Below are positions 8,438 to 61,173 of a DNA stretch of 64,000 nt, piece by piece. The notes beneath the pieces are model-generated. The model searched no databases. It saw only the letters and a program-made list of their open reading frames with translations, and was not told the DNA's origin. This DNA is from a bacterium (GTDB lineage Bacteria > Patescibacteriota > Minisyncoccia > Phycocordibacterales > UBA5272): assembly GCA_023267635.1 (NCBI GenBank), contig JAHFMX010000004.1, positions 2,837-66,836 on the forward strand, read 5' to 3'. Position 1 is the first letter of the stretch. Each line of letters starts with the position of its first letter. The position numbers and the translations under genes are program-made.

Positions 8438-8440
8438 ATG

Positions 8441-8513
8441 TGTCCCCAGAAGGGATCGAACCTTCGACCTGCGGATTAAGAGTCCGATGCTCTACCAGCT
8501 GAGCTATAGGGAC
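8441..8513 (-). tRNA. tRNA-Lys (CTT)
   Basis: Manual cloverleaf on minus strand: acceptor GTCCCTA/TGGGGAC, anticodon loop CTCTTAA, T-arm GAAGGTTCGATCCCTTC. Confidence 0.8.
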
Positions 8514-8623
8514 ATTGACACACGCAGAACACTATACCATAGTATGAAAAACTTTTCTAGATATGTTAGTATGGTATCTATTATGAGGGCGGAACCAAGA
8601 GGTTCCGCCCTCAATAAAAGAAT

Positions 8624-8697
8624 GACGCAGTGGCGAAGTGGCCTAACGCTGCGGTTTGCAAAACCGCCATTCGCGGGTTCGACTCCCGCCTGCGTCT
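8624..8697 (+). tRNA. tRNA-Cys (GCA)
   Basis: Acceptor GACGCAG/CTGCGTC, anticodon stem GCGGT/ACCGC with loop TTGCAAA, T-arm GCGGGTTCGACTCCCGC. Confidence 0.85.
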
Positions 8698-8715
8698 CAC
8701 GAAGTGAGTAAAGGA

Positions 8716-8739
8716 AAAAGCCACCTGCGTGGCTTTTGT
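8716..8739 (+). terminator. terminator hairpin after tRNA-Cys
   Basis: aAGCCACctgcGTGGCTtttg. Confidence 0.45.
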
Positions 8740-8811
8740 CGGGAGTCGAATAGGGGTCGCGAAGTCTTCTGTTTCGAGTATTCACGAAACTAGACTTTGT
8801 GACCGAATCTC

Positions 8812-8830
8812 CCCGCCTGCGTCTCACGAA
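8812..8830 (+). repeat. direct repeat of tRNA-Cys 3' end
   Basis: cccgcctgcgtctcacgaa identical to 8685-8703, 127 bp downstream; preceded by a degenerate T-arm-like gaccgaatctcccc and an inverted T-arm fragment gggagtcgaa (8741-8750). Confidence 0.5.
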
Positions 8831-8837
8831 AGGAATG

Positions 8838-8846
8838 TGCTAGAAT
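8838..8846 (+). promoter_or_regulatory. extended -10 box TGCTAGAAT upstream of tRNA-Leu(TAA)
   Basis: gtgcTAGAATacag 18 nt before tRNA start. Confidence 0.4.
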
Positions 8847-8863
8847 ACAGCCTATAAAACCCT

Positions 8864-8946
8864 GCCCGGGTGATGGAATGGTAGACATAGAGGACTTAAA
8901 ATCCTCGGCTGGTTACAGCGTGCGGGTTCGAGTCCCGCCCTGGGCA
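8864..8946 (+). tRNA. tRNA-Leu (TAA)
   Basis: Acceptor GCCCGGG/CCTGGGC, anticodon stem GAGGA/TCCTC with loop CTTAAAA, long variable arm, T-arm GCGGGTTCGAGTCCCGC. Confidence 0.85.
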
Positions 8947-8953
8947 CATGAAA

Positions 8954-8992
8954 ATAAAAATACCGAAATCATTTTTCGGTATTTTTATTTTT
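8954..8992. terminator. AT-rich rho-independent terminator after tRNA-Leu
   Basis: aaaaATACCGAAAtcattTTTCGGTATttttatttt. Confidence 0.5.
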
Positions 8993-8996
8993 ACAT

Positions 8997-9118
8997 GCAG
9001 GGCGGGACTCGAACCGCGGGCCGCAACCTGCGAAGAGCAGGTGTAGGTTTCGAGGCAAGCATGCCGAGAGGCGAGTCCCGCTGCCAAGCTTCGAATCTGC
9101 TGATTCGCCTGGGCACAT
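8997..9118. other. tRNA-Leu-derived structured element / decayed pseudo-tRNA (identity unresolved)
   Basis: Starts with inverted T-arm/acceptor fragment gcagggcgggactcgaacc (18/19 to tRNA-Leu 3' end) and ends with direct cgcctgggcaca; internal 10-bp long-range stem gcgggactcg (9002-9011) / cgagtcccgc (9074-9083); cannot be folded as a cloverleaf on either strand. Confidence 0.3.
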
Positions 9119-9795
9119 TATATAAACTCTACAGGAATTTCTGCCGTAAATGTTTTTTCTTCGCCGTTAAGTGTGAAGGAAAGTGAGTATGCGTGTAGCA
9201 TAATGCGTGAATCTTTAACGGTACTGCCGTATGCAATGTCTCCGACAATGGGATGTCCACCATATGACATGTGTGCGCGTAACTGATGTGTACGACCTGT
9301 TAAGGGAGCAAGTTCTACGAGGGTTGTGTTGCTGTTTCTTTGTAAAACGTTTACTTCTGTAACAGCAGAACGTAGTTCGCCTCGTGGGTTGATGGGATTA
9401 ACTGATTGTTTGTATTCCTTTTTATTTCTACCAAGAGGAGCATCAATGGTGTAGCTATCTTTTTCTACGACTCCTTCAACCAAAGCAATATATTTTTTTG
9501 TAGTAGCATGATTTAAAAACTCCTTTTTGAGCGCTTCAAAGGTGGGTTCATTTTTCGCAATAACCATAACGCCAGAAGTTTCCCTATCTAATTTATGTAC
9601 GATGCCTCCTAATGGAATGATTCTTTCGTCCTGGAGGGTTATAGAGTTGTTGATAGAAAACATAGCAGGGGAATGCGCATACAAAAAATCAACAACCGTT
9701 TCTTCGTCAGAAAAGTCAAAAGGGTGTACTACGACACCTGAAGGCTTATCTATAACAAGTATGTTTTCATCCTCGAATATAACAGGGATAATCAT
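9118..9795 (-). CDS. RluA-family pseudouridine synthase
   Basis: Catalytic motif region HRLDRETSGVMV and GRTHQLRAHM. Confidence 0.8.
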   Translation of the reverse strand: MIIPVIFEDENILVIDKPSGVVVHPFDFSDEETVVDFLYAHSPAMFSINNSITLQDERIIPLGGIVHKLDRETSGVMVIAKNEPTFEALKKEFLNHATTKKYIALVEGVVEKDSYTIDAPLGRNKKEYKQSVNPINPRGELRSAVTEVNVLQRNSNTTLVELAPLTGRTHQLRAHMSYGGHPIVGDIAYGSTVKDSRIMLHAYSLSFTLNGEEKTFTAEIPVEFI

Positions 9796-9995
9796 GATTA
9801 GTTCATACTACGGGAAAGGAGGAGGAATAACAAGAAAGGACTTGGTTGTAATATGTTTTGGAAAGGAGTCTTGGCTACAAGTTTTGTGTCGTCGCCACTC
9901 CACAAACTCGCAGCCCGCCCCTCGTGGTTTTGCTTGCTAGCAAAACATCACTGCGGGCATTCAAGTCCTTAAGTAAGACAAGTCATTGTCTTACT

Positions 9996-10050
9996 TCCCG
10001 GGCACAAATGAAAAAACACATCAAAGATGTGTTTTTTCATTTGTGCCCGG
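9996..10050. repeat. perfect 26-bp inverted repeat (hairpin) overlapping the 3' end of tRNA-Leu(TAG)
   Basis: cccgggcacaaatgaaaaaacacatc aaa gatgtgttttttcatttgtgcccggg; right arm includes the tRNA acceptor 3' strand; acts as terminator for the minus-strand tRNA. Confidence 0.65.
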
Positions 10051-10125
10051 GAAAGGACTTGAACCTTCATGAGTTGCCTCGCTTGCTCCTAAGGCAAGTG
10101 CGTCTACCAATTTCGCCACCCGGGC
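10044..10125 (-). tRNA. tRNA-Leu (TAG)
   Basis: Minus strand: GCCCGGGTGGCGAAATTGGTAGACGCA, anticodon stem CTTGC/GCAAG with loop CTTAGGA, long variable arm, T-arm. Confidence 0.85.
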
Positions 10126-10367: not shown

Positions 10368-11318
10368 TTAGGCGGACAATTGTGTTGCCTTGTGCACGTT
10401 AGGTAATCCTTCCGTGACATGTGCGTGTCTGCCGCGACTGGACTTCACAGTGCTCAGACGGATGCCAGCTATTTCGAGGAGTGCACGGATGTGCTGATCG
10501 AATTCTGGATTCATTTTCGCAGCGCTGTCGACATTGATGATGCTTCCGTAAAGGAGGTGTGCACTCAGGTGGTGTCCTGGTGTGAGTTTCTTCACCACGA
10601 ACTCGTTGCCGAAGTTTCCGCGACGAAGATCGAGGATGAGTTGCCCTTTTTCGTCGGGGGCACTGTAGATACCCAAACAATCTTCCTTCATCAGGTCGGT
10701 AATGGGTCGGCAGGTTTCTCCCAACATCTTGTCTTGAATCGGAACGATGTCTGCGGTCTTGGTAGAACCTTTCTCAGCCGCAGGCACAACATGGGTAGCC
10801 GTCACAAGCACAGGTGGTTGCTTTGATTCCCAGTACCGCTGCTTGACTTCTCGTATTTCGCTTTGCAGGATGCTGTGAAGAAAACCCAACATCCTGTATT
10901 GTTCTTCGCCAATGTAGCCCATGGCAAAATGACATTTTTCCAAAGGAATAAAGAGCCAGACATGCGGGATAAAGATGCCATCTGCACGTTCGATGATGGG
11001 GAATTCACTAGTCGCACCTTCGCGCATCTTGAGTGTGACATCAATGGATTCGCTCCCATTGTCGAAGTTTCGTCCGATGAGGTAGGAGCCTTCGATGCCG
11101 TCACAGAACATTTGAAAGCGCAGACGTCCTGCTGCAATCTTTTGTGCAAGTGTCTGGCGCTCGCGTTCAGTCTCACGATTGCGCTTGGGTGTGTAGTCTG
11201 GCGGGACACCCTTTGCTTTTGCCACCTTTGGCTTCTGGTAGCGAGGCTGCTCGGGGTTTTTACCCCCATTTTCGCTGTCGTGTTTCTCGGTCTTGTGACC
11301 GTTAGATTTGTTCGCCAT
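10368..11318 (-). CDS. hypothetical protein, compositionally distinct (GC-rich, strong SD)
   Basis: 316-aa ORF; by eye ~50% GC vs ~42% background; basic N-terminus; SD aaggag 7 nt before ATG; no recognisable domain. Confidence 0.6.
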   Translation of the reverse strand: MANKSNGHKTEKHDSENGGKNPEQPRYQKPKVAKAKGVPPDYTPKRNRETERERQTLAQKIAAGRLRFQMFCDGIEGSYLIGRNFDNGSESIDVTLKMREGATSEFPIIERADGIFIPHVWLFIPLEKCHFAMGYIGEEQYRMLGFLHSILQSEIREVKQRYWESKQPPVLVTATHVVPAAEKGSTKTADIVPIQDKMLGETCRPITDLMKEDCLGIYSAPDEKGQLILDLRRGNFGNEFVVKKLTPGHHLSAHLLYGSIINVDSAAKMNPEFDQHIRALLEIAGIRLSTVKSSRGRHAHVTEGLPNVHKATQLSA

Positions 11319-11396
11319 TGCAATCTCCTTGGTATGATATGGAAAGGAACAGTTGAAGCATGTTTCTGTCAGAGTACAGCTTGTATGCCATTATAT

Positions 11397-11404
11397 ATTA
11401 TACA
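11397..11404 (-). promoter_or_regulatory. extended -10 box TGTATAAT for the GC-rich 316-aa gene
   Basis: revcomp of attataca; ~80 nt upstream of ATG. Confidence 0.35.
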
Positions 11405-11440
11405 CTAAATACATACTTTGTCAAGTTATACAAAGTACTA

Positions 11441-13441: not shown

Positions 13442-13924
13442 TTAGTTCTTATGAGCTTGTTTGGACTCTTCGAGTACTGCTTGCTCTTCTTCTGTGAGGT
13501 CGTGCGTGCTTGTGTACCCTGAAACTGGTTTCGCAAAAACAGATACTCGGTCTCGGTGATGAAGTGAAGACAAAATGAGTCCGTTTCCGAGTTCATTCAC
13601 GAGTGCTACAGCAAATGATTGATTACTTCCATTTTGATCAAAAGCTTTGAAGCGCATTGTTGATACGTTTCTAATAGACTGCGCGAGACGCTTGTCTAAT
13701 TTGAGAGCATGTTCAGCAATGAGCTCGTCATGCTTCTTAAGGTCATCTACTTTATCAAGATAGGTGCGAATGACGGACTCAAGACTTTTTGCATTTTCTC
13801 CACGAGTGAAAACAGAAATTTTATAATGAAGATATACAACATAGAGAAGAAGGATGACGAGTGCAATAGAGAGCGGAATACTTGGATACTGTAATGCTTG
13901 CTGAGCTAGAGAAGAGAGATTCAT
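13442..13924 (-). CDS. hypothetical membrane-anchored protein (DUF4446-like, CPR-typical)
   Basis: N-terminal TM (IALVILLLYVVYLHY) plus coiled region. Confidence 0.5.
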   Translation of the reverse strand: MNLSSLAQQALQYPSIPLSIALVILLLYVVYLHYKISVFTRGENAKSLESVIRTYLDKVDDLKKHDELIAEHALKLDKRLAQSIRNVSTMRFKAFDQNGSNQSFAVALVNELGNGLILSSLHHRDRVSVFAKPVSGYTSTHDLTEEEQAVLEESKQAHKN

Positions 13925-14082
13925 GTTGTGCTGTAGTGTAACAAAAAAGTTTGATCTTAGTTAGGTGTGTATAACGCTTTTATTTTTTATGGAGGAATGT
14001 TAGAGTTATACGTAGTGAGGGGTGTCGGATCCTCATTTTTTGTACAAGAATCCGATTGAATCAAACTTGAACAAGGAGAAGA

Positions 14083-14525
14083 CCATGAAAAAATCGCTGA
14101 TTGCTGCCGCACTGTTGTGCGCAGCGCTCTCTGCGGGTGCTTCCATGAATGCGCAGGCTTCGGGCCAGGCGCCGCCAGGTATCCACGCTGCAACTTCGAA
14201 CAAGGTCGATGCGGTGGAAGAAGTCAACAACCAGCAACCTGCGTTCGGCGGCAATCTCGCGCCCGACGGCAAGACCTTCGTGCTCACGGTCACGGGCCAG
14301 GGCATCACCAAGTTGCTGCCTGTGCGCCTGGTTGATGCAGGATGTGGTGACATCAGCAGTGGCGGTGGTTCGCGTTGCATTACTCCGACGCTGTGGCGGC
14401 CTGCCGTGGACAAGGTCAAGGCGCCACCATTGATTGCTGCCACCCCCGACCAGAACTACACCGGCCGTGCACGTTTGCCCGCAACCTCCCTCGGTGAGCC
14501 GCCCGGCGCCGCTGTTCTCACTTGA
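14083..14525 (+). CDS. small secreted protein, strongly GC-rich (foreign-looking)
   Basis: Start chosen at MKKSLIAAALLCAALSAGASMNAQA (signal peptide) with SD aaggag 7 nt upstream; by eye ~60% GC in an AT-rich genome. Confidence 0.6.
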
Positions 14526-14552
14526 ACATCGGCAGCTGGTGAAACCTACATG

Positions 14553-14595
14553 CTTCCATGTGCGCAATTGCATATGTGGAAGCGTTTTTATTTTT
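14553..14595 (+). terminator. terminator after GC-rich secreted-protein gene
   Basis: CTTCCAtgtgcgcaattgcatatgTGGAAGcgtttttattttt. Confidence 0.45.
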
Positions 14596-14641
14596 GTCAT
14601 TTAGTAGGTGTAGTATTTCTTATAGACACAAGGAGGTATGT

Positions 14642-14854
14642 ATGCAATCGTTAAGACTAACGAAAGTTGCTGTTTTTATAAAAAAGCTTTTCGGTTCACT
14701 GCCTGCCAATTTTAAGTATGACGATTTCATTTTGTGCGGTGAACTGAGTGAATTCCATCAGATGGCTAAAGCCGCTGAGGTCACTAAAGGTTTAGAGCTG
14801 TCACGCTATCGCCTTTCTGGGTACTCTGGATATAAAACTACGTACCTGAATTAA
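14642..14854 (+). CDS. small hypothetical protein (70 aa)
   Basis: In-frame ATG with strong SD aaggagg 5 nt upstream; MQSLRLTKVAVFIKKLF... Confidence 0.4.
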   Translation: MQSLRLTKVAVFIKKLFGSLPANFKYDDFILCGELSEFHQMAKAAEVTKGLELSRYRLSGYSGYKTTYLN

Positions 14855-14885
14855 ATCAGCCCCACCGGACTGATTTTTTCTTTTG
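14853..14885 (+). terminator. rho-independent terminator
   Basis: AATCAGccccaccggaCTGATTttttcttttg. Confidence 0.5.
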
Positions 14886-14903
14886 ATGTGATAGAGTATT
14901 CGT

Positions 14904-16100
14904 ATGTTTAACCTGTTTACAAAAAAACAAAAAAGAATCTATCTCGACAACGCTGGAGCAACACCAGTAAGTAAGCGCGCCCAAGCTGTTCTTATTGAAC
15001 GCTTGAGTGTCTTTGGTAACCCCTCAGCCATTCACCAAGAAGGAGATAAAGCCTCCCAGGTATTACAAAAAGCACGGAATACTGTGGCAACAGCCTTGAA
15101 CGCTCATTCATATGAAATAACATTTGTTGGAACGGGAACGGAGAGTTGTAACATTGCGATTTTAGGCACCATCGCAAAGGTTTCTGGAATTACGCTTCCT
15201 CATATTATTACAACGGAGATTGAACACCCAGCTGTACTGGAACCAATCCGTCATCTCGAGAAAACAGGAAAAGTTCGCGTGACCTATCTTCCTGTGTACG
15301 ATAATGGAATTGTAAAAGTAAAAGATATTCGTGAAGCTCTCACGGAAGAAACAGTATTGGTGTCAGTTATGTATGCCAACAATGAAATCGGAACCATTCA
15401 ACCAATAAAAGAAATTGGCCGTGCGCTTGATGAGTGGAAGAGGGAGCGAGAGAGGACATTTACTTCGTATCCATACTTCCACGTGGACGCATGTCAGGCG
15501 GGAAATTATTGTAACCTCGACGTGGTGCGCCTTAAAGCACACTTAGTTACGGTGAATGCTTCAAAGGTGTATGGTCCAAAAGGAATTGCTGCACTTTATA
15601 AACGAGAGGGAATTAGTGTTGAACCAACAACCTATGGCGGCGGACAAGAACGTGAGCTACGTAGTGGAACAGAATCAGTAGCTCTCGCAGCAGCGTTTGC
15701 TGAAGCGCTCACTGAAGCAGTTGAATTGCGTGATACAGAATCAGAACGACTAGCAGTATTACGAGACTTCTTTTTCAAAGAAGTTGTAAAACATATTCCT
15801 GATGTAACTATCTATGGAGATACGAAAGAAAGACTTCCAAATAATATCAACATTCGTGTTCCAGGTATCACAAGTGATGAGCTCATCTTACGTCTTGATG
15901 CGAATGGGTTTGCCGTCTCACATAAATCAGCGTGTGCCTCTGCTGAGACTGATGGAAGTTATGTTGTGCAAGCGCTCGGTGCCACGATTGCGGAATCGTT
16001 AGAAAACGTGCGCATCACACTCGGACGGGACACGACACAGTCAGATCTTGAAAGGCTTATTTCATCGCTCCAAACTATTAAAGAAACATTTGGGCGCTAG
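14904..16100 (+). CDS. cysteine desulfurase (class V aminotransferase, NifS/IscS family)
   Basis: YLDNAGATP N-terminus; PLP-lysine region VNASKVYGPKGIAAL; active-site loop HKSACASAE. Confidence 0.85.
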   Translation: MFNLFTKKQKRIYLDNAGATPVSKRAQAVLIERLSVFGNPSAIHQEGDKASQVLQKARNTVATALNAHSYEITFVGTGTESCNIAILGTIAKVSGITLPHIITTEIEHPAVLEPIRHLEKTGKVRVTYLPVYDNGIVKVKDIREALTEETVLVSVMYANNEIGTIQPIKEIGRALDEWKRERERTFTSYPYFHVDACQAGNYCNLDVVRLKAHLVTVNASKVYGPKGIAALYKREGISVEPTTYGGGQERELRSGTESVALAAAFAEALTEAVELRDTESERLAVLRDFFFKEVVKHIPDVTIYGDTKERLPNNINIRVPGITSDELILRLDANGFAVSHKSACASAETDGSYVVQALGATIAESLENVRITLGRDTTQSDLERLISSLQTIKETFGR

Positions 16101-16159
16101 TCACTCGATTGGTACTGTATTACACTGGTACCATCAACTACTAATTAATACTTATATTT

Positions 16160-16726
16160 ATGTACGAACAAAAAGATTTTGCACACCTGCTCTCGACTCC
16201 TGGATTTTCTGATGCGTTGCTCACTAATCACTTCACGCTCTATCAAGGGTATGTGAAGAATACCAACGCTCTTATCGAAAAGTTTAAGACACTTGAAATT
16301 GGAACTCCTGAATATGCAGAACTCCATCGTCGTTTTGGATGGGAATGGAACGGGATGCGACTTCATGAGCTTTATTTTGAGAACATGAAAAATGGTGGAG
16401 TGGCACTGACTGCAGGCTCTGAATTACAGAAAGTTATCGAATACGTATGGGGCTCATTTGAAAATTGGCAGAAAGAATTTATTGGTATCGGAACAATGCG
16501 TGGTATTGGATGGGTGGTCCTTGCGTATGATCCAGTAAAGAAAATGGTTTTCAACACATGGGTAAATGAACACAACGAAGGAAATCTAGCAGGAGCAGTT
16601 CCTGTTCTCGTTATGGATGTATTTGAACATGCATTTATGGTTGATTACGGACTCAAGCGCGCTGACTATATCACCGCGTTTATGAATGCAATTGATTGGA
16701 GTGTTGCAGAGAAGAGATTAGTTTAA
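16160..16726 (+). CDS. Fe/Mn superoxide dismutase family protein (divergent metal-ligand motifs)
   Basis: C-terminal DVFEHAFMVDY (cf DVWEHAYY); N-terminal helix region; first His pair only partly conserved (TNHFTLYQ). Confidence 0.7.
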   Translation: MYEQKDFAHLLSTPGFSDALLTNHFTLYQGYVKNTNALIEKFKTLEIGTPEYAELHRRFGWEWNGMRLHELYFENMKNGGVALTAGSELQKVIEYVWGSFENWQKEFIGIGTMRGIGWVVLAYDPVKKMVFNTWVNEHNEGNLAGAVPVLVMDVFEHAFMVDYGLKRADYITAFMNAIDWSVAEKRLV

Positions 16727-16752
16727 ATTAAAAAGCTAATATAATACTAACA

Positions 16753-17265
16753 ATGAAGTGGATTCTATTTACAGGTACCTGGAAGCTTACAAATCATGAA
16801 GTGGAGAATGATGTACGAGAAGCTGCTCGTGAAGTGCTTTCTCGTGGAGATGGAATCGTAACGGGAGGGGCTACTGGAGTGGATTATTTTGCTATGGATG
16901 AAGCCATGAAAATGTTTCCAGATGCTTCACGTTTAAAAGTTATCATTCCAGCAATGTTTAAAAGCTATGTGTATGACTATCATACTAACTGGCTTATGCC
17001 TCCAGTTACCACAGAGAGCATCTACAATCTCGAAAAAATTCTTCAACAGATAAAAGACACAAATCCTGAATCTCTTGTTGAAATGCCAAACGATATAATC
17101 ACGCAAGACCACTACAATGATCGCCACGATGAGGAGGTAAAGATTTCAGATGAAGTGTATGCTTTCCAAGTTAACAACAGTACTGGAACACAGGATACTA
17201 TCGACAAAGCTGCTAAGAGTGGTTTGCCTATCATTCTCCATAAGAAGTACACGATTGTGATTTAG
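16753..17265 (+). CDS. SLOG-family Rossmann protein (DprA/LOG-like)
   Basis: TGGATGVDYFAMDEAM resembles the DprA GxARGID loop (cf dprA SGLALGVDGLSHEAAL). Confidence 0.45.
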   Translation: MKWILFTGTWKLTNHEVENDVREAAREVLSRGDGIVTGGATGVDYFAMDEAMKMFPDASRLKVIIPAMFKSYVYDYHTNWLMPPVTTESIYNLEKILQQIKDTNPESLVEMPNDIITQDHYNDRHDEEVKISDEVYAFQVNNSTGTQDTIDKAAKSGLPIILHKKYTIVI

Positions 17266-17295
17266 GCTATAAAGCTAACCTCACTTAAAATTCTT

Positions 17296-17333
17296 ATAAA
17301 AAACAAAACCGCCGAAGCTGCTTTGCTTGGCGG
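17296..17333. terminator. terminator between convergent genes
   Basis: minus strand: CCGCCAAGCaaagcaGCTTCGGCGGttttgtttttt. Confidence 0.5.
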
Positions 17334-17342
17334 TATGTCCAC

Positions 17343-17552
17343 TTAGTTTTTTTTGATGACCTTGACGGGTGTGCAGGTTATGGGTTTTCCATCTTGTCCG
17401 AAGATGGGGGTTCCCACATTCGTATAAAGGGTTTTGGAAATTTCCAGGCAAACATTCTCGTCTGGGGAGAAAACCTTTGCGTAGTTGTTGCCACAACTCC
17501 AGGGCATGAGTGCAAGAATCAACAACAGGACACCAAAGATAGAGTAGTTCAT
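17343..17552 (-). CDS. small secreted protein (signal peptide), GC-elevated
   Basis: MNYSIFGVLLLILALMPWSCGN signal-like N-terminus; 69 aa. Confidence 0.45.
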   Translation of the reverse strand: MNYSIFGVLLLILALMPWSCGNNYAKVFSPDENVCLEISKTLYTNVGTPIFGQDGKPITCTPVKVIKKN

Positions 17553-17580
17553 TTCAATTCCCTTTGTCTTTTGGCGGAAT

Positions 17581-17826
17581 TTATTCGCGACTTGCGTGCA
17601 AGAGCCTTTTGCAATGGTTGGCCAGCGTCACGGCCGCGACTGAGATGAAGCCGACAATCGAGGTGATGAGGATAACTACCTTCACCACCTCAAACCAGTT
17701 CACCAAACGCGCTTGGTTGGAAATACTGATCAGCATTGGCATGATGAGGAAGCTCAGAGCTCCCAAGATAGCCAGCGCAGCAAGAAGGATTGCAGCCAAA
17801 GTAACTGTAATGGTTTTGATGCCCAT
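17581..17826 (-). CDS. small two-TM membrane protein
   Basis: 81 aa; two hydrophobic helices. Confidence 0.45.
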   Translation of the reverse strand: MGIKTITVTLAAILLAALAILGALSFLIMPMLISISNQARLVNWFEVVKVVILITSIVGFISVAAVTLANHCKRLLHASRE

Positions 17827-18020
17827 GTGTTTTCTCCAAGGTTATATATTGAGTAAAGAGCCATATGTATTATGCTATTTTTACCGAATATTGTCAAGTT
17901 GACTGGTATGGCGTAATTTGAGATTGTAGGTATATACCGTATTGACTGACTATCCACCACGCCTGAGACTCTGAACTGATACACTGAGCTAAAGACCTTG
18001 TGTTTTAACATTTACAATCC

Positions 18021-20726
18021 ATGCCTCCAAATTTCAACAACTTCACCACCAAAGCAAAGGAAGTGATTCGTCGGGCGCATGAACTTGCTATCGAGCGAGG
18101 ACAGAACCAGGTGAGTCCACTCCATCTTATGGGAGCTCTTCTTACACAGGAAGAGTCTCTTGTGCATGCTATTTTAGAAAAATTAGAAATCGATATTGTT
18201 CATCTTACTGACAGCATTGTGGACGCTATTGAAGTTCCTGGAGCTTCAGCTACGATGAGTCCGTCATATCAGATGTATCTCACACCTGAACTTGCAACAA
18301 CACTTGAAATGTCACTGAAGGTTGCTCAAACCCTTGGAGACGAATTTGTTTCAACGGAACACCTCTTCCTTTCATTACTTGAATCACAAGGACAAGTACG
18401 TGAAGTACTTGCACGTTTCCGAATCGACAAGGACGCGGCATATCATATATTAGAAGACCTTCGCTCACAGAATATTACTGAAGCGCAAGGCGGAAAGAAA
18501 AATAAAGCACTCGCGAAATACACACGTAATTTCACGGAGCTTGCACGTGCGGACAAATTAGATCCAGTAATCGGTCGCGATACAGAAATCATGCGTCTTA
18601 TGCAAATTCTTTCTCGTCGCACAAAGAATAATCCAATCCTCATTGGTGAAGCTGGTGTTGGAAAAACTGCAGTAGTAGAAGGACTCGCAATTCGTATGGC
18701 AAAAGGGGATGTTCCAGAGTCTCTTAAAGGTAAAGAACTCGTATCACTTGATCTTGGAATGCTTATTGCTGGAACAAAGTTCCGCGGAGAATTTGAAGAA
18801 CGACTCAAAGCAATCATGAAAGAAATTGAACGCTCAGAAGGAGGCATTATTCTTTTCATCGATGAGATTCACACCATTGTCGGAGCGGGGGCAACAGAAG
18901 GATCAGCGGACGCCGCAAACCTACTCAAGCCAGCACTTTCTCGTGGAGAGCTCAGAGCCATTGGAGCAACAACTATCAAGGAGTATCAGAAGCATATCGA
19001 AAAGGATCCAGCTCTTGCCCGTCGTTTCCAGCCAGTGTTTGTAGAAGAACCAACAGAGCTCGACACGCTTGCGATCTTACGTGGCCTCAAGGAAAAGTAT
19101 GAACTCTTCCACGGGGTACGTATTACAGATGATGCTCTTATCTCAGCGGTGAATCTTTCGACTCGATATATTACGTCACGATTCCTACCTGATAAGGCAA
19201 TTGACCTTATTGATGAGGCTGCCTCATCTCTTCGTATTGCTCTCGAGAATAAGCCTCCTGTGCTTGATGATGCTCATCGCAAGATCATGCGTTTAGAAAT
19301 CGAAAAAGAAGCGCTCACGAAGGAACTTGTTGCACATAAGGAAGACGATGATGCGCATGGAACAGGAACTGAAAAGCGAATTCATGCTATCGACGAAGAG
19401 ATTGCAAACGTAAAAGAGAAGACTCGCGAACTTGAGCTTAAGTGGAAAAACGAAAAGAAGACACTTAATGAAATTGGAGAACTTAAAAAGTCTCTTGAAA
19501 CCCTCCGTATTGAAGCAGAGAACGCAGAAATGCGCGCTGACCTTACTCGCGCTGCGGAGATTCGTTATGGACAAATTCCAGAGCTTACACGCGAACTTGG
19601 TGAACGTATGGAGAAACTAAAGAAACTTCAGAAGACACGCAGAATTCTACGTGAAGAAATTACAGAAGAAGATATTGCTTCTGTGGTGGCTCGTTGGACG
19701 GGTATTCCTGTTGTGAAAATGTTGGAAGAGGAAGAAGAAAAATTAGCGCACATGGAAGAAGGACTTGGAGAACGTGTGATTGGACAGCGTGATCCAATAG
19801 AAAAAATAAGTGGAGCAGTGCGCCGAAGTCGTGCGGGGATTAATGATCCATCACGCCCAATCGGTTCATTCCTATTTCTTGGTCCAACGGGTGTTGGAAA
19901 AACGGAACTTACAAAGGCGCTCGCAGAGTTTATGTTCAATGACGAGAAAGCGCTCATCAAAGTGGATATGAGTGAATACATGGAGAAGCATTCAACGTCA
20001 AAGTTGATCGGAAGTCCTCCAGGATATGTTGGATATGATGAATCAGGGCAACTTACTGAAGCAGTTCGCCATCGTCCGTACGCCGTTATCTTGTTTGATG
20101 AAGTTGAAAAGGCTCATCCTGAAGTATTCAACTTACTTCTTCAGGTTCTTGATGAAGGGCGACTTACAGACAGTAAGGGGCGCATTGTTAACTTCAAGAA
20201 CACGATTATTGTGATGACATCCAACATTGGAAGTCAGCACATCCAGAAGATGGAGCAGATTGGGTTTACTAATCACACAGAAGGAAGTGAGTACGCACAA
20301 GTGAAGGAACGAGTTATGGAATCTCTCAAAGAATTCTTTAAGCCTGAGTTCTTAAACCGCCTTGATGAAACAATTATCTTTGATGTGCTCGACAAGAGTC
20401 AGGTGAAGCAAATTGTAGGTCTACAGATGGCTCAAATTGCAAAGCGCCTACAGGAAAAAGATATTATTCTTGAAACAACAGAAGAAGCTCTTGCTCACAT
20501 TGCAGAGAAATCGTTTGACCCACATTATGGAGCGCGACCTATCAAGCGATTTATTCAGACTCATATTTTGAATCAGGTTGCATCTCTCATGCTTTCAAAG
20601 AAATTTATGAAAGGGGGAATAGCTGCAGTAGCACTCGATAAAAAGGGAGACGTTATTGTTGAAGCAAAGAAACCAAAGAAGATTCCAAGTCCAATATCCA
20701 AAAAGGATCTTGTAACAAAGAAGTAA
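18021..20726 (+). CDS. clpB: ATP-dependent chaperone ClpB
   Basis: Clp N-domain; two AAA+ modules ([18 protein letters not shown]) with long middle coiled-coil; 901 aa. Confidence 0.9.
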
Positions 20727-20735
20727 AGATCTACA

Positions 20736-20895
20736 AAATCATCCCATCTACTTTGTCGCTACGGGATTTTTCTCAGTCAATGTATATGGAAATGTTCCTT
20801 TGCTTGCTAGCTCCGGAACTCTTTGTCGCTCTTCGCTCCTAGATCCTTCTAAAAATCCCTAAGCTTCGCGTACCTGGAACAATTTTCTAGATTTT
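20736..20895 (+). repeat. 3'-UTR repeat family A, copy 2 (composite, with nested ~60-nt insert)
   Basis: aaaatcatcccatctactttgtcgctacgggatttttctcagtcaatgta...ccctaagcttcgcgtacctgg; insert duplicates ctttgtcgct and carries ttgcttgctagctc. Confidence 0.6.
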
Positions 20896-20903
20896 AAAAA
20901 CAT

Positions 20904-20937
20904 AAAGTGCCGCATATTTGCGGCACTTTATGTTTTT
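20904..20937 (+). terminator. rho-independent terminator after clpB and repeat
   Basis: AAAGTGCCGCatatttGCGGCACTTTatgttttt. Confidence 0.65.
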
Positions 20938-20946
20938 AATGAAATT

Positions 20947-20955
20947 TGCTATAAT
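20947..20955 (+). promoter_or_regulatory. extended -10 box TGCTATAAT (possible tRNA-Tyr promoter)
   Basis: tttGCTATAATcc, 46 nt upstream of tRNA-Tyr. Confidence 0.3.
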
Positions 20956-21000
20956 CCAATTCTGTTGGTTTGTGTCAAAGTATTTAGACCAACACTTTTT

Positions 21001-21083
21001 GCGTCAGTCGTATAGTGGCAATTACAGGGGACTGTAAATCCCCCGCGCATAGCGCTCCGCTGGTTCGAGTCCAGCCTGACGCA
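21001..21083 (+). tRNA. tRNA-Tyr (GTA)
   Basis: Acceptor GCGTCAG/CTGACGC, anticodon stem GGGGA/TCCCC with loop CTGTAAA, long variable arm, T-arm CTGGTTCGAGTCCAG. Confidence 0.85.
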
Positions 21084-21100
21084 CAAAATAGTTTTTATTA

Positions 21101-21131
21101 AAAATCTCCATATTTGAATGGAGATTTTTAA
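21101..21131 (+). terminator. terminator after tRNA-Tyr
   Basis: aaaATCTCCATatttgaATGGAGATttttaat. Confidence 0.6.
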
Positions 21132-21233
21132 TTCTAACGGTAGTATTGACTTTTATATTAAATATGTTATAATTAAAAAGCTAAGGATTTAATTTTTCAT
21201 TTCGAAAAATATTCTTGGCGAAGGAGATAGAGA

Positions 21234-21521
21234 GTGCAAACAGCAATGAGTTTGGCGCTTGCGAGAGTCGGTTTGATTACCGAAGAGCAAGCAAGAGACA
21301 TTACATGTCTGCCGCGGCACTTGAAGACATATCAGGAGCAGATTGAAGAAATCTCTCTACTTGCTGGTCTGATGAAAAATGCCAATATCAATGCATCTGG
21401 TACAGACACGCTTGTCTATATCGCGTACAGGCTTGATTTGGAAAGTGGAAGATATGCTGAAGGTTTTCAGCTCATGCTTTCCCATCTGAAGAAAAGAGTT
21501 GCTGAACTCGGACTCGTTTAA
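21234..21521 (+). CDS. small hypothetical protein (95 aa)
   Basis: ORF followed by its own terminator; no recognisable motif. Confidence 0.45.
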   Translation: MQTAMSLALARVGLITEEQARDITCLPRHLKTYQEQIEEISLLAGLMKNANINASGTDTLVYIAYRLDLESGRYAEGFQLMLSHLKKRVAELGLV

Positions 21522-21562
21522 TCTAAAATATAAAGGAGAATTCTATCATGAAGACATGACAC

Positions 21563-21590
21563 GCCGACACCAACTGTGTCGGCTTTTTAT
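21563..21590 (+). terminator. rho-independent terminator
   Basis: GCCGACACcaactGTGTCGGCtttttat. Confidence 0.6.
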
Positions 21591-21675
21591 ATGCCAAAGT
21601 TTTAACGTGAGGGCTTTGTTAATAAAACCTGCGCCATTTGAGATGAAAAACACATAGAGTGGTCTGTATAGAGGG

Positions 21676-21684
21676 TGATATACT
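21676..21684 (+). promoter_or_regulatory. extended -10 box TGATATACT, leaderless arrangement
   Basis: ATG at 21691 lies 7 nt after the box. Confidence 0.4.
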
Positions 21685-21690
21685 TACCAC

Positions 21691-22236
21691 ATGAGAATTG
21701 CAGTCCTTGGTCCACAAAATACTGGTAAATCAACTTTTATACAAGATTTCTTAGCTGAATTCCCACACTATACAACGCCGCCTGAGACCTACCGCGACCT
21801 TGTGGAGGAAAAGGAATTAGAGGTTAATCAACTGACTGGAGTAGAAAGTCAAAAAGCAATTCGTGATTTTATGTTTGGACAGTTGCGTCACAATACTGCG
21901 TATAATGTTATTTTTGATAGGTGTCTTATTGATAACTATGTGTATACCTACGTTCAGTATGAGGCAGGCACTATTCCAAAATGGTTTGTAGATGAAACCG
22001 AAGCAATGATGAAGGACACACTTCAAAATGTTGATATGTATTTCTTTATTCCTACGGCGGTTGCTGTGCCGTTGGTTGATGACGGAACACGAGACATTAC
22101 AGCTGAGTATATTGATACAGTTAATAATCACTTCTTAAGAGTTTTATTTGAGCTCTCAAGAAAATACAACATTACCGTTAAGGTTGTGTCGGGGAATCGA
22201 GAAGCAAGAATGGAACAGGTTAGAAAAATAATTTAA
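21691..22236 (+). CDS. P-loop NTPase (AAA_28/NadR-like nucleoside kinase fold)
   Basis: Walker A GPQNTGKST at N-terminus; DR motif IFDRCLID. Confidence 0.55.
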   Translation: MRIAVLGPQNTGKSTFIQDFLAEFPHYTTPPETYRDLVEEKELEVNQLTGVESQKAIRDFMFGQLRHNTAYNVIFDRCLIDNYVYTYVQYEAGTIPKWFVDETEAMMKDTLQNVDMYFFIPTAVAVPLVDDGTRDITAEYIDTVNNHFLRVLFELSRKYNITVKVVSGNREARMEQVRKII

Positions 22237-22248
22237 TTTTTAATTACT

Positions 22249-22629
22249 ATGAATATAGAAGATCGCAAAAAAGAATTAACACCAGAAGAAAACCACGTCC
22301 TCTTTAATGGTGGAACAGAGGCTCCGTTTACAGGTGAGCTTCTTAATGAACACCGTGTGGGAATGTTTAGTTGTAAGGTGTGTGGTACACCACTCTTTGC
22401 TTCGGACACAAAATTTGAATCAGGATCAGGGTGGCCTTCGTTTGATCAAGCTCTACCTGGCGCCACAGAGAATATTGAAGACAATTCACTCGGCATGCTT
22501 CGGACGGAAGTAAGGTGTGCTACGTGTCATGCTCACCTAGGGCATGTGTTCGATGACGGACCAGCAACAACTGGTAAGCGCTACTGTATGAACTCAATCT
22601 GTATGGAATTTAAGGAAGAAGAAAAATAA
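22249..22629 (+). CDS. msrB: peptide methionine sulfoxide reductase B
   Basis: SelR fold: two CxxC zinc pairs (CKVCGTPLF, CATCHAHLGHVF) and GWPSF. Confidence 0.85.
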   Translation: MNIEDRKKELTPEENHVLFNGGTEAPFTGELLNEHRVGMFSCKVCGTPLFASDTKFESGSGWPSFDQALPGATENIEDNSLGMLRTEVRCATCHAHLGHVFDDGPATTGKRYCMNSICMEFKEEEK

Positions 22630-22634
22630 TATAT

Positions 22635-23018
22635 ATGTCATCACTTTTTACAAAAATCATTGCAGGTGAAATTCCAAGTTACAAGATATACGAAGATGAA
22701 TACTCGTATGCTTTTCTGGACATTAATCCTTCACGTGAGGGGCACACTCTTGTTGTTCCTAAACAAGAAGTTGACCAGTTGTTTGATCTTGATGAAGAAT
22801 CATATCGAGGGCTTATGAGCGCTGTTAAGAATGTTGCTGAATTGCTTAAAGCAAAACTGAACTGCATGCGTATATGTGTCGTTGTTGAAGGGTATGAAGT
22901 TCCTCATGCTCATGTGCACCTGCTTCCTACCAATACTGCAGAAGATTTTATTTCTCGAAGACCACACACGGCAACTGACGAGGAGCTGAAAGAAGTTCAC
23001 GCTAACATCGTCTCATAG
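22635..23018 (+). CDS. HIT-family (histidine triad) nucleotide hydrolase
   Basis: HxHxHxx motif HAHVHLLP; N-terminal FxKII. Confidence 0.8.
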   Translation: MSSLFTKIIAGEIPSYKIYEDEYSYAFLDINPSREGHTLVVPKQEVDQLFDLDEESYRGLMSAVKNVAELLKAKLNCMRICVVVEGYEVPHAHVHLLPTNTAEDFISRRPHTATDEELKEVHANIVS

Positions 23019-23021
23019 TAT

Positions 23022-23288
23022 ATGAAGCAACCAATAACATTTAAAGAAGCTGTGTATGACGTTGTAGCTAAAATCCCAAAAGGGAATGTTATGACATATA
23101 AAGAAGTTGCTATAAAAATTGGAAAGCCAAACGCGTCCCGTGCGGTGGGTACGGTATTAAGTAAGAATTTTAATCCAGATATTCCGTGCCATCGTGTGAT
23201 TCGTGCTGACGGAAAAATGGGAGGTTATAATCGCGGGGGAATTACTAGTAAACGCACCATTCTCGAAGAAGAAGGTGCTAATATATAA
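23022..23288 (+). CDS. ogt: methylated-DNA-protein-cysteine methyltransferase (MGMT C-terminal domain only)
   Basis: Active-site IPCHRVIRADG, wHTH; 88 aa. Confidence 0.75.
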   Translation: MKQPITFKEAVYDVVAKIPKGNVMTYKEVAIKIGKPNASRAVGTVLSKNFNPDIPCHRVIRADGKMGGYNRGGITSKRTILEEEGANI

Positions 23289-34695: not shown

Positions 34696-35124
34696 ATGGC
34701 AATATATTCTAAAGACGAGCTTATTAACATGGTAAAAGGTGCAGGACTTCGTGTCACTGATCATCGGCTTTTAGTGTTGGAATATTTAGCAAAAGTAAAA
34801 CAGCCTGTTACTGTGTATGAACTCGTGGAAGACCTCCGCAAGAAAGAAAACATTGATCAAGCAACGGTATACCGAAATCTTTCCTCTCTACACGAGGCAG
34901 GACTCCTGAGACGGCTTGATTTTAATCATGGACATGCGCATTACGAGCTTGAAACAGGACATGCGTCACATCAGCTGGTGTGTAATAACTGTGAGACAAT
35001 AGAAAAGATAGAAGGCATTTCTATTGATGATACTGTGAAGAAAATGCTTAAGAAGAGTAAAAAGTTTAAACACACAACAACTCACTCAATGGAAATATAC
35101 GGTTTATGCAAAACTTGCGCCTAG
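34696..35124 (+). CDS. Fur-family metalloregulator (likely Zur)
   Basis: wHTH, HAHYELETGHASHQLVCNNC...C..C metal sites; adjacent to ZIP transporter. Confidence 0.8.
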   Translation: MAIYSKDELINMVKGAGLRVTDHRLLVLEYLAKVKQPVTVYELVEDLRKKENIDQATVYRNLSSLHEAGLLRRLDFNHGHAHYELETGHASHQLVCNNCETIEKIEGISIDDTVKKMLKKSKKFKHTTTHSMEIYGLCKTCA

Positions 35125-36224
35125 CTATTCTTTTTGTAAGCTTCGTTAGCACGTTCTCTTTTTCTTTTGCTCAGGATTCTGTGTTGCTTCAGGATAGAGA
35201 GCTAACGATGCTCGCGACAGTGCTTCGGGTGGAGAGCTCAGAACTTCAGGAGGTTCCAAATACAAACACCACAGCACTGTATCAGACTGTTGTCGTTCGT
35301 ATTACGAAAGGTGAACAGCAAGATAAAGAAGTAACGATTACGGACAGTGCTTTTGCGGTACAGTCGGGAGATAAAGTGTACGTAAGATATTTACAGACAG
35401 CTGACGGCGGAGAGTATTACAGCATTCAAGAACCCTATCGATTAGATGCGCTTCTCTGGCTCTTCATTTTTTTCGTAGCAGTAGTGCTACTTTTCGGAGG
35501 TAAGCAAGGATTCCTTTCGCTTGTTGCTTTGTTTGTGTCTTTTGGTGGAATATTTACATATCTTTTCCCGCATATTATTACAGGGGGAAACATTGTTGCG
35601 ATTGCAACACTCGGTGCGTTACTTTCGTTATTTGTGGTTATGTATCTTACGCACGGGTTTACAAGGCTCACTACGTCCGCCTTTCTTGGATGTACGTTGT
35701 CAGTACTTGTAACGCTTGCTTTGGCAAAATATGCTGTTGTTATAGCAAAGCTAACTGGTTTTGCTAATGAAGAGAGTGTGTACCTCAATATTGCAACGCA
35801 GGGTAATATTGATTTTATAGCACTTCTCGTCGGAGGAATTATTATAGGAGTAATAGGAGTTATTGATGATGTTTCCATTACTCAAGCGTCAGTTGTTAAT
35901 CAATTGCAATTAGCGAATCCGCAGATAAGCGCAAGAAATTTGTACACCAAAGCGCTTTCGGTCGGTAAGGATCATATGGGAGCTGTTATTAACACGCTTA
36001 TCTTGGCATACGCAGGTGCGTCATTGCCACTTGTTCTGCTTTTCTATGTAAGTAATACACCAGTGTTAGAGCTTATCAATCGTGAGATTGTAGCAACTGA
36101 AATTGTCCGCAGTATTGTTGGTTCTGTAGGACTGTTACTAGCTGTTCCACTAACAACACTTATCGCAGTGTTTCTTATGAAAAATCACGCCTCAAAGGAA
36201 CATGCGCACACCCATCAGCATTAA
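35106..36224 (+). CDS. YibE/F-like polytopic membrane protein with His-rich C-terminus
   Basis: Signal peptide, soluble N-domain, 6-7 TM, C-terminal KEHAHTHQH; overlaps fur stop by 19 nt. Confidence 0.4.
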   Translation: MQNLRLAILFVSFVSTFSFSFAQDSVLLQDRELTMLATVLRVESSELQEVPNTNTTALYQTVVVRITKGEQQDKEVTITDSAFAVQSGDKVYVRYLQTADGGEYYSIQEPYRLDALLWLFIFFVAVVLLFGGKQGFLSLVALFVSFGGIFTYLFPHIITGGNIVAIATLGALLSLFVVMYLTHGFTRLTTSAFLGCTLSVLVTLALAKYAVVIAKLTGFANEESVYLNIATQGNIDFIALLVGGIIIGVIGVIDDVSITQASVVNQLQLANPQISARNLYTKALSVGKDHMGAVINTLILAYAGASLPLVLLFYVSNTPVLELINREIVATEIVRSIVGSVGLLLAVPLTTLIAVFLMKNHASKEHAHTHQH

Positions 36225-36248
36225 GTTGAAAATGGTATACTTGTCAGT

Positions 36249-36704
36249 ATGATTAAAGTCGGAAATAAAGCTCCAAAGTTCTCCTTGCAAGACCAAGAGG
36301 GGAAGATTCATACACTTTCTCAGTACCAAGGAAAGAAAATACTGCTGTACTTTTATCCTAAGGATGACACACCAGGATGTACTACCGAGGCCTGTAACTT
36401 TCGTGATGGATATGACATGTTTACAAACATGGGGTTAGTTATTCTAGGGGTTAGTAAGGACGGGGTGGAAAGTCATAAAAAATTTGCAGAGAAGTTCTCG
36501 CTCCCATTCCCGCTTCTTGCTGATGAGTCAACAGATGTCTCACAAGCGTACGGTGTCTGGAAACAAAAAAAGTTTATGGGACGAAAATACATGGGAATAA
36601 ATCGCACAAGCTTTCTTATTGATGAAAAAGGGGTTATTAGTAAAATCTATGAAGGGGTGAAAGCTAACGAACACGCAAAAGATGTTGAAGGAGATCTCTC
36701 ATAA
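36249..36704 (+). CDS. bcp: peroxiredoxin Bcp (thiol peroxidase, PrxQ type)
   Basis: YFYPKDDTPGCTTEACNFRD. Confidence 0.8.
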   Translation: MIKVGNKAPKFSLQDQEGKIHTLSQYQGKKILLYFYPKDDTPGCTTEACNFRDGYDMFTNMGLVILGVSKDGVESHKKFAEKFSLPFPLLADESTDVSQAYGVWKQKKFMGRKYMGINRTSFLIDEKGVISKIYEGVKANEHAKDVEGDLS

Positions 36705-36766: not shown

Positions 36767-37129
36767 TTAATTCCCGCCAGGCATACGCATGAAGCAAACA
36801 TTCGGCGGACCGACGTCGTCTTTGAAATCGGGGTGTGCACTGAAGGGTTCGGTGCCTCCGTTGCTTGTCCACGAAATCAAATTGTCGCGATCCTGGATCT
36901 TTTTCGTCCTGTAAGGAGTGCCGTCGTGAGTGAGGCCCACCCAAGCAGAATTGATGTGGACGTTGGAAACCACGCCACCTTTCAGACGCACGGCACCCTG
37001 TGTGTCTACGTCAATCATTAATCCCAGAAAGCCGTTGATTCTGCTTCCCAGGAACGTCTGCATTTCTTCTGCGGTCATGTCGGACGTTGCAACCCCACTG
37101 ACCTGTTCTTCGATTTGATCTCTTGCCAT
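36767..37129 (-). CDS. hypothetical protein, GC-rich ORFan
   Basis: 120 aa, by eye ~55% GC; no confident motif. Confidence 0.4.
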   Translation of the reverse strand: MARDQIEEQVSGVATSDMTAEEMQTFLGSRINGFLGLMIDVDTQGAVRLKGGVVSNVHINSAWVGLTHDGTPYRTKKIQDRDNLISWTSNGGTEPFSAHPDFKDDVGPPNVCFMRMPGGN

Positions 37130-55667: not shown

Positions 55668-55706
55668 CCCATGTCGGGTCAGTACTATGAGGCAAGGAGA
55701 AATGAA

Positions 55707-61105: not shown

Positions 61106-61173
61106 TTTCCATCTTGGTTGCATATAACACAACGTTTACTTGCTTTTGACTAGATTAGGCGTAGAATTGAGTC

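Follow-up and report, generated by a model that had tools for sequence, protein, structure and literature searches.

Why should one short reading frame be so much richer in GC than everything around it, and is it a newcomer to the genome that carries it? The question is raised by an open reading frame (ORF) of 146 amino acids on the + strand of a 64,000-nucleotide stretch of DNA (contig JAHFMX010000004.1 of assembly GCA_023267635.1; hereafter the window, i.e., the whole stretch that was analyzed) from a bacterium of the Candidate Phyla Radiation (CPR). An earlier note on this DNA took the ORF for the gene of a small secreted protein recently acquired from a GC-rich donor, or else for contamination or a chimeric assembly. 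The ORF proves to be a genuine protein-coding gene, inherited in place; its high GC, which does not extend beyond the reading frame, has persisted near equilibrium, and its amino-acid sequence evolves 10–20 times faster than its neighbors by substitutions, in-frame insertions and deletions (indels) and recombination. The family it belongs to was previously unannotated and is narrowly distributed, and its persistent foreign-like codon usage is the unusual feature. The explanation we consider probable is that of a stand-alone, in-place gene for a fast-evolving exported protein, the high GC of which is held by selection on the coding sequence.

The ORF extends from an ATG at 14085 to a stop codon ending at 14525 (the earlier note had the end right, but placed the start at 14083, 2 nucleotides before the ATG). 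Its GC content is 0.624–0.626, with 0.64, 0.57 and 0.67 at the first, second and third codon positions (GC1, GC2 and GC3), as opposed to 0.416 for the whole window, and it is the GC maximum among the 440-nucleotide stretches of these 64 kb (z=5.3), so the impression of a GC-rich ORF in AT-rich surroundings was accurate. The windowed measurement that had been proposed as a check does find a deviation from the local background: in 60-nucleotide windows, GC goes from 0.43 before the ATG to 0.57–0.72 at it, and is back to 0.38 directly past the stop. The step thus coincides with the start and stop codons, up to both of which the flanks are of native AT-rich composition, and the adjoining genes have a GC3 of 0.30–0.40. 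When the protein is recoded with the codon frequencies of the core genes, GC falls to 0.505 and GC3 to 0.31 (observed about 0.62 and 0.67), from which it follows that about 0.12 of the GC excess is due to codon choice and about 0.08 to amino-acid content.

Relatives were sought among 5.8 billion proteins, which gave 10, and by a profile search of 1.84 billion representatives followed by a second profile search, which gave 12 clusters; the encoding DNA was recovered for all 12 family members, from independent NCBI, ENA, Logan and JGI assemblies. Every one of the 12 sits in the same slot, with RbfA, IF-2 and DUF4446 genes pointing away on the left and, on the right, the gene itself, an optional small ORF, and then NifS, SOD and ClpB genes in the opposite direction. 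The family is confined to a small Nomurabacteria subgroup of the CPR (one relative is classified as Candidatus Nomurabacteria, as befits the CPR host assumed earlier). No homolog outside the slot was found in either protein collection, nor in phage, plasmid and viral collections. Transferred islets are expected to carry other marks, and at this locus there are no mobility genes, no flanking direct repeats and no adjacent tRNA; the sole flanking repeat, a T-rich match of 13 nucleotides, could be due to chance, 4 kb separate the locus from the nearest tRNA, and the neighbors are core genes. By their DUF4446 proteins the loci fall into a clade 1 (the window, L001, L003, L008, L010 and L012; mutual DUF4446 identity 91–99%) and a clade 2 (L005, L015 and L017; 85–90%), with about 54% identity between the two. 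The recurrence of the slot in independent assemblies and in both clades disposes of contamination and of chimeric assembly, and the idea of a recent horizontal acquisition fails on the same 12 of 12 relatives, which are all GC-rich, synonymously saturated pairs included, as well as on the lack of a donor-side homolog.

The reading frame itself is that of a protein-coding gene. Frame +0 is the sole frame open in all 10 orthologs tested, and a 179-amino-acid antisense ORF (14061–14600), open in the window, is interrupted by stops in 8 of them. Length differences among orthologs are all in frame, with start, Shine-Dalgarno (SD) sequence and C-terminus kept. The region has no match in Rfam, even at E<=1, and the coding sequence folds no better than its shuffled versions (z=+1.1); this, together with a coding-frame pattern of substitutions, is not what a structured RNA would leave behind.

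If the high GC were a remnant of foreign origin, it should wear off, which is not what the orthologs indicate. All of them have a GC of 0.55–0.63 and a GC3 of 0.47–0.73, as against a GC of 0.38–0.42 in their flanks and genomes. Between clade 1 and clade 2, synonymous sites of the gene are saturated (proportion of synonymous differences, pS, 0.60–0.70), likewise those of the flanking genes, and so the third positions of the gene have turned over and yet stayed GC-rich. Stationarity was tested by two-state simulation with a star-tree approximation. Plain parsimony polarization was discarded as biased, since in the flanking control genes it gave 326 changes from A or T to G or C (W>S) and 157 in the opposite direction (S>W); for this reason, change counts were only read through the simulation. 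The latter reproduces the mirror-image ratio of the AT-rich flanks (0.48 observed, 0.47 simulated), which explains why raw parsimony counts mislead. Singleton third-position changes in the gene amount to 18 S>W and 10 W>S. With GC3 stationary at 0.70, the expected S>W to W>S ratios are 1.8–3.1, a range that the observed 18:10 fits, whereas decay under flank-like pressure predicts 4.9–8.2 on shorter branches and is rejected (P=0.014 to 0.0005); from branches of 0.3 substitutions/site on, the decay model needs an ancestral GC3 above 1. As far as this small sample and simplified model go, there is no drift of composition towards that of the host, as would be seen in an islet being assimilated.

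The codon shift is specific and common to all orthologs, with a preferred set that includes CTG, CCG, GGC, ACC and CAG. For glycine, the family uses GGC (59%), GGT (33%), GGA (5%) and GGG (2%), whereas core genes use GGA (52%) and little GGC (9%). CTN leucines are CTG (56%) and CTC (38%) in the family and CTT (55%), with 6% CTG, in core genes; proline is CCG in 47% of cases, as opposed to CCA (55%) and CCG (8%) in core genes; and the valine codon GTA, at 30% in core genes, falls to 0%. Third-position A is the most depleted base (0.11). The GC3 of core genes of typically high expression (S16, ATP synthase subunits, SOD and AhpC) is an ordinary 0.31–0.38, which means that the style of this gene is not the high-expression style of the genome. 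Two CCGCCAGG sites, in the stretches encoding QAPPG and GEPPG, were considered as a functional DNA motif and rejected: codon conservation at invariant residues is 0.74, compared with 0.72–0.81 in flanking genes, and with the two thus equal there is no hidden DNA-motif constraint.

In spite of this steadiness of composition, the protein changes fast. Within clade 1 it is 57–86% identical where the flanking proteins are 91–99% identical, with a nonsynonymous divergence (dN) of 0.2–0.36 versus 0.01–0.06 in the flanks, a similar synonymous divergence (dS), and a ratio of the two (omega) of 0.45–0.93 versus 0.02–0.08. Clade 2 members are 38–45% identical where their DUF4446 proteins are 85–90% identical, and over the whole family the identity of orthologs ranges from 33 to 86%. 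Alleles are mosaic: that of L014 has a signal-peptide segment 94% identical to that of L003 followed by a segment 85% identical to that of L001, and the alleles of L003 and L010 are 96% identical at the C-terminus and only 75% at the N-terminus. Recent homologous exchange around the locus is also indicated by patches of zero divergence beside genes at a dS of 0.5–0.7, namely the small downstream ORF (14642–14854), identical between the window and L003 (8549–8761) although flanking genes are at that distance, and the DUF4446 genes of L003 and L008, identical at synonymous sites (dS 0). Nowhere else in the 64 kb is any part of the gene repeated, whether as DNA or as protein, there is no G-quadruplex motif, and the repeat search found no template repeat nearby, the ORFs of the window not having been systematically screened for a reverse transcriptase.

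The gene is dispensable, since deleted and decayed alleles exist. P0013 is a deletion allele that reads on into the terminator; L040 (GCA_039739615.1, 4820–5000; DUF4446 87% identical) retains decayed pieces of the leader (GTTAGGTGTGCATAAGG and ATCAGATTGAAT) and no coding sequence; and L041 (GCA_040384045.1, 4916–5000; DUF4446 77% identical) has an empty spacer of 85 nucleotides at the site. Its presence in the distant clade 2 implies that the gene either is old and was lost repeatedly or has spread from lineage to lineage.

The encoded protein begins with 25 residues (MKKSLIAAALLCAALSAGASMNAQA; 14085..14159, + strand) that read directly from the sequence as a signal peptide, exactly as had been quoted: a basic n-region (MKK), a hydrophobic core SLIAAALLCAALSAGA (Kyte-Doolittle 2.0–2.6) and an A-x-A end, as in Sec type I signal peptides. 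The pattern is retained in all 12 family members, MKKSL being invariant, and signal peptidase I is predicted to cleave between AQA and SG. There is no lipobox ([LVI][ASTVI][GAS]C ending the hydrophobic region): Cys12 lies within the hydrophobic core, after A-L-L (A-M-L in relatives), and clade 2 members lack it. Nor does the signal peptide have a twin-arginine motif. The mature protein (14160..14525, + strand; 121 amino acids, 12.2 kDa, isoelectric point 7.8) is 35% Gly, Ala and Pro, and in the alignments it keeps QAPPG at the predicted N-terminus, DGK-F, WRP..K-PP, and a C-terminal GEPPG with a hydrophobic tail of 4–6 residues up to the stop (e.g., AAVLT, AAVLI, AIFI). Its middle is variable, with a 26-residue loop with two cysteines present in some orthologs and absent in others. 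The tail has no transmembrane helix with a basic end, and no C-terminal sorting signal (LPXTG/sortase, PEP-CTERM and similar) was found. Profile searches of Pfam, NCBIfam, PHROGs and PDB returned sub-threshold matches only, all to the signal-peptide region; of these, NCBIfam WGxxGxxG (NF041742; 13.2 bits, cut-off 35) and Pfam DUF6491 (11.9 bits, cut-off 27.5) cover residues 1–50 only, and the protein belongs to neither family.

The control region is in parts better conserved than the gene it serves. An extended -10-like element, TGnTAGAGT (13998..14006, + strand), is invariant in 9 of 9 aligned orthologous upstream regions, the distant clade included, and is probably a promoter element, with transcription starting some 7 nucleotides downstream. 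It is followed by a 5′ leader (14014..14058, + strand) which, across both clades, is better conserved than the coding sequence, and which comprises a hairpin GTGAGGGrTGTCGGATCCTCATT (14014–14037), a TGTACA palindrome (14041–14046) and a AATCCGATTG box (14049–14058), all on the + strand; an alternative stem is possible by pairing of TCGGAT with ATCCGA. The leader has no covariation, an ordinary stability (z about 0) and no Rfam match, so that an RNA element (i.e., a 5′ stabilizer or regulator) and a DNA operator would both be compatible with these data. The SD sequence, AAGGAG (14073..14078, + strand), lies 6 nucleotides before the ATG, is invariant in all orthologs, and is as canonical as the earlier note had it. 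Downstream, a hairpin with 15-bp arms (14552–14583) and the T-run after it form an intrinsic terminator (14552..14595, + strand) kept across orthologs. Of the terminators previously thought to flank the gene on both sides, this one holds, whereas the upstream one (14014–14037) is part of the conserved leader. A scan of a metagenome collection with the leader motif gave 21 stretches, and tblastn found no family member encoded in any of them; the collection evidently lacks these genomes, and the 21 stretches appear to be chance matches, mostly in unrelated GC-rich contigs.

Such a control region is out of the ordinary here. A strong SD (AGGAG/GGAGG) precedes only 4 of the 58 ORFs of the window and is missing from the other 54, as had been supposed of the native genes; the four ORFs led by it are all orphans (10368–11318 on the - strand, 14085–14525, 14642–14854 and 58222–58626). 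A -10-like TAnnnT ends 4–9 nucleotides before the start in 23 of the 58 ORFs, compared with 9% of random positions, and this placement close before the starts suggests that the genes of the window mostly have leaderless mRNAs. About half of the Parcubacteria have no anti-SD motif in their 16S rRNA, which fits the reduced use of SD sequences (PMC9297842).

In the explanation favored here, the gene would be its own transcription unit (promoter, leader of about 70 nucleotides, SD, coding sequence and hairpin terminator), giving a leadered mRNA from its own promoter, which is unusual in this genome, with translation driven by the SD. A Gly/Ala/Pro-rich protein of about 12 kDa would be exported by the Sec pathway, cut after the predicted AQA, and released to act outside the cell, whether on its surface or on a partner or host. 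Export, anchoring, attachment or recognition could be the task of the conserved ends, leaving the middle free to vary. The codon bias would be held by selection on the coding sequence, through the rate or regulation of rare-codon translation or through mRNA stability, and would not be a leftover of foreign composition. Selection on the coding sequence is favored because the GC excess is both confined to the reading frame and stationary, and it is preferred to both donor heritage and GC-biased gene conversion. A cell-surface or partner-facing role would fit a gene that diverges rapidly, shuffles its alleles and can be dispensed with, and the earlier suggestion of a host-interaction factor seems a reasonable idea.

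It is tempting to go further and imagine two expression regimes in this genome, with most genes leaderless and AT-rich, and a few orphan, fast-evolving or replaceable genes having a promoter, a long leader and a strong SD, although we hold such a division to be improbable. The set would consist of the gene, of two other window orphans (orf316 and orf134) and of the 70-amino-acid ORF at 14642–14854, with rare codons ending in G or C in the first three only, a membership about which we are equally doubtful. That codon bias and leader were then selected to gate or tune exported partner-facing proteins (by tRNA supply, ribosome state or mRNA stability) is speculation of the same low standing; in the extreme version, these genes may be adapted to the translation machinery of a host cell richer in GC.

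Several observations weigh against the explanation favored here. The signal peptide was called by eye and not by a dedicated predictor, and no homology match is informative on export, location or function. Two AlphaFold2 runs (10 and 12 sequences) gave a predicted local distance difference test score (pLDDT) of 44–45 and no secondary structure, which would make a fold search meaningless. By its charge and hydropathy, the mature protein is calculated to fall on the 'folded' side, which leaves disorder unsupported, and for this reason intrinsic disorder is not claimed. The segment-wise omega of the gene is 0.29–0.89, and because no segment exceeds 1, the speed of its evolution can be put down to weak constraint just as well as to diversifying selection. 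The data behind the stationarity test are 28 changes, read with a star tree and a two-state model, and recombination breaks its tree assumption. The gene is not alone in its traits, as an SD and a raised GC3 are also found in orf316 (0.56) and orf134 (0.54), and its codon preferences resemble those of many proteobacteria; both facts fit a foreign origin. Finally, the gene is absent from loci at 87% and 77% DUF4446 identity and present in the clade at 54%, and this patchiness could reflect lateral spread between lineages.

The first of the alternatives is an ancient horizontal acquisition, in which an ancestor received the gene from a GC-rich, SD-using donor or a mobile pool and its composition is a heritage kept by constraint; we regard it as possible, if unlikely. 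It would account for preferences that are codon-specific (CTG, CCG, GGC, ACC, CAG) and not for just any codon ending in G or C, for the presence of a canonical SD and of a long leader where most genes appear leaderless, for the patchy distribution, and for the company of other SD-led orphans of raised GC3, one of which (orf316) has its slot filled in L003 and L008 by non-homologous GC-rich, SD-led genes. It does not sit well with the failure to find a homolog off-slot in the 5.8 billion and 1.84 billion proteins, the phages, plasmids and viral contigs, with the want of mobility genes, flanking repeats and an adjacent tRNA, or with flanks that are native and AT-rich right to the start and stop codons; moreover, a maintaining force is needed in any case, as heritage alone cannot outlast synonymous saturation. 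GC-biased gene conversion, in which frequent recombination between strains with repair biased towards G and C raised the GC, can invoke the clearly mosaic alleles and the recent exchange around the locus, as well as a published trend (Lassalle et al. 2015, PMC4450053), by which GC3 tends to be higher in bacterial genes that recombine, mainly through non-optimal GC-ending codons. Nevertheless, it would not stop at ORF boundaries, where the GC step lies, nor spare the leader, the terminator and the 70-amino-acid ORF (GC3 0.39), which recombine and are not GC-enriched. Nor does it foresee preferences as codon-specific as those for glycine (GGG 2% versus GGT 33%), and a GC3 shift from 0.31 to 0.67 looks too large next to the weak gene-level association given in the same paper (R2 of 0.03–0.09 between recombination rate and GC3; PMC4450053). 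We consider it improbable.

The remaining alternatives can be granted very little. Programmed hypervariation, by a diversity-generating retroelement or by gene conversion from silent cassettes, would suit the extreme variability between conserved ends and the depletion of third-position A, and CPR genomes are rich in such retroelements. It is nonetheless very unlikely, as the searches described above met neither a duplicate of any gene segment, nor a G-quadruplex motif, nor a template repeat, synonymous divergence equals that of the flanks, and alleles differ by indels and by swaps of whole segments as well. That the 146-amino-acid ORF is incidental to a structured non-coding RNA, or to a gene hidden on the other strand, is suggested by the frequency with which GC-rich islands of AT-rich genomes turn out to be RNA genes (as does the tRNA cluster at 8.6–9.1 kb) and by the antisense ORF open in the window; the silence of Rfam, the unremarkable folding, the stops met by the antisense frame in most orthologs and the conservation of the frame, start, SD and C-terminus through in-frame indels make it hardly credible. 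Just as little credit goes to a recent transfer, contamination or chimeric assembly, in spite of the sharp compositional island, the foreign-looking codon style and the SD, as the same gene with the same neighbors recurs in at least 10 related genomes that were assembled independently, in orthologs diverged to 33–86% identity and all GC-rich, with a native-style leader and terminator conserved.

The slot is anchored on the left by the divergent DUF4446 gene (13442..13924, - strand; Pfam E=1e-33), which adjoins the gene in every locus recovered, and on the right by a NifS-like cysteine desulfurase (14904..16100, + strand; Pfam Aminotran_5 in orthologous loci), which has a -10-like GATAGAGT immediately before its ATG (within 14884–14903). 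Orientation switches at 13924/14085, with mostly - strand genes to the left and mostly + strand genes to the right; checked as a replication origin, this point has a cumulative GC skew that is flat and then rising, with no clear minimum. Between the gene and NifS lies the second small SD-bearing gene announced earlier, an orphan of 70 amino acids (14630..14854 with its SD, + strand; ATG at 14642, stop ending at 14854, SD AAGGAGG at 14630–14636) of native GC (0.40; GC3 0.39), no Pfam match, and a hairpin with a T-run behind it at about 14855–14880. It is patchy in relatives (100% identical in L003, 76% in L001 and 47% in L008; absent from L010, L011, L015 and L017). A toxin-immunity pair of the two genes was considered and rejected, as the presence or allele type of the ORF does not track the allele of its neighbor and it has no membrane segment.

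The genes for RbfA and a pseudouridine synthase enclose another variable slot, where a conserved promoter, TTGACA-N17-TATAAT (within 11319–11440), precedes an SD-led, GC-rich orphan (10368–11318, - strand; GC3 0.56–0.66). Its loci in relatives are L001 4283–5248, L012 727–1689, L003 3954–5240, L008 4182–5234 and L041 7741–8694; the orphan is 74–78% identical in relatives with flanks 96–99% identical, and in L003 and L008 the orf316 gene is replaced as already mentioned. Further orphans with no Pfam match are found at 36767–37129 (- strand, GC3 0.60), 55671–56390 (+ strand, 0.56) and 58222–58626 (+ strand, 0.54), the last being a predicted membrane protein with a canonical promoter, a leader of about 55 nucleotides and an SD. 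Raised GC seems to mark orphan accessory genes here, which is the opposite of the usual AT-rich accessory pattern. As for the rest of the window, the genes downstream of the slot (14904–23288) form an oxidative-stress and repair cluster (NifS-like desulfurase, Fe/Mn SOD, ClpB), orthologous loci continuing past ClpB with MsrA, MsrB, a HIT protein and a methyltransferase-like DNA-binding protein, and Fur and AhpC lie further along (34696–36704). The GC-rich patch at 8.6–9.1 kb (within 8440–10125) is a cluster of tRNAs (Lys-CTT, Cys-GCA, Leu-TAA and Leu-TAG) and no coding anomaly. The far end of the window (60683–63831, with ORFs at 60683–61105, 61174–63183 and 63172–63831) deviates in the other direction, being an AT-rich patch with a GC of only 0.29–0.35.

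Life attached to other cells is presumed for CPR bacteria, of whose partner-facing proteins very few are known. The gene described here offers a concrete candidate, being lineage-restricted, predicted to be exported, rapidly diversifying and equipped with a conserved control region. It is also a clean counter-example to the rule that a compositional island means a recent transfer, as its foreign-looking codon usage has remained stable through synonymous saturation within genomes of the opposite bias. The cause of this stability bears on how codon usage is controlled in small, mostly leaderless genomes, and the gene would gain in significance should SD-led, GC-rich orphans prove to be a distinct expression class.

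Among known systems, transferred islets resemble the gene in their sharp GC and codon deviation, host-atypical translation signals and patchy distribution; unlike them, it has neither donor homologs nor mobility features, its boundaries are those of the ORF, and its composition is stationary. Rare-codon-gated genes (e.g., those with TTA codons read by the bldA tRNA in Streptomyces) offer another possible analogy, the gene being built largely from codons rare in its genome (GGC 9%, CTG 6% and CCG 8% in the core), although its bias spans the whole gene and many codon families, and the seven tRNAs of the window are uninformative on the matter. The third comparison is with the polymorphic secreted or surface antigens and adhesins of symbionts and pathogens. 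The gene differs from these in that it has no sequence or structural relation to described families, that its omega stays under 1 throughout, that repeats, cassettes and phase-variation tracts are missing, and that its product is small (12 kDa) and has no recognizable anchor. It is like them in its signal peptide and conserved ends around a variable middle, in the shuffling of segments, the in-frame indels and the occasional loss, and in a dN far above that of its neighbors.

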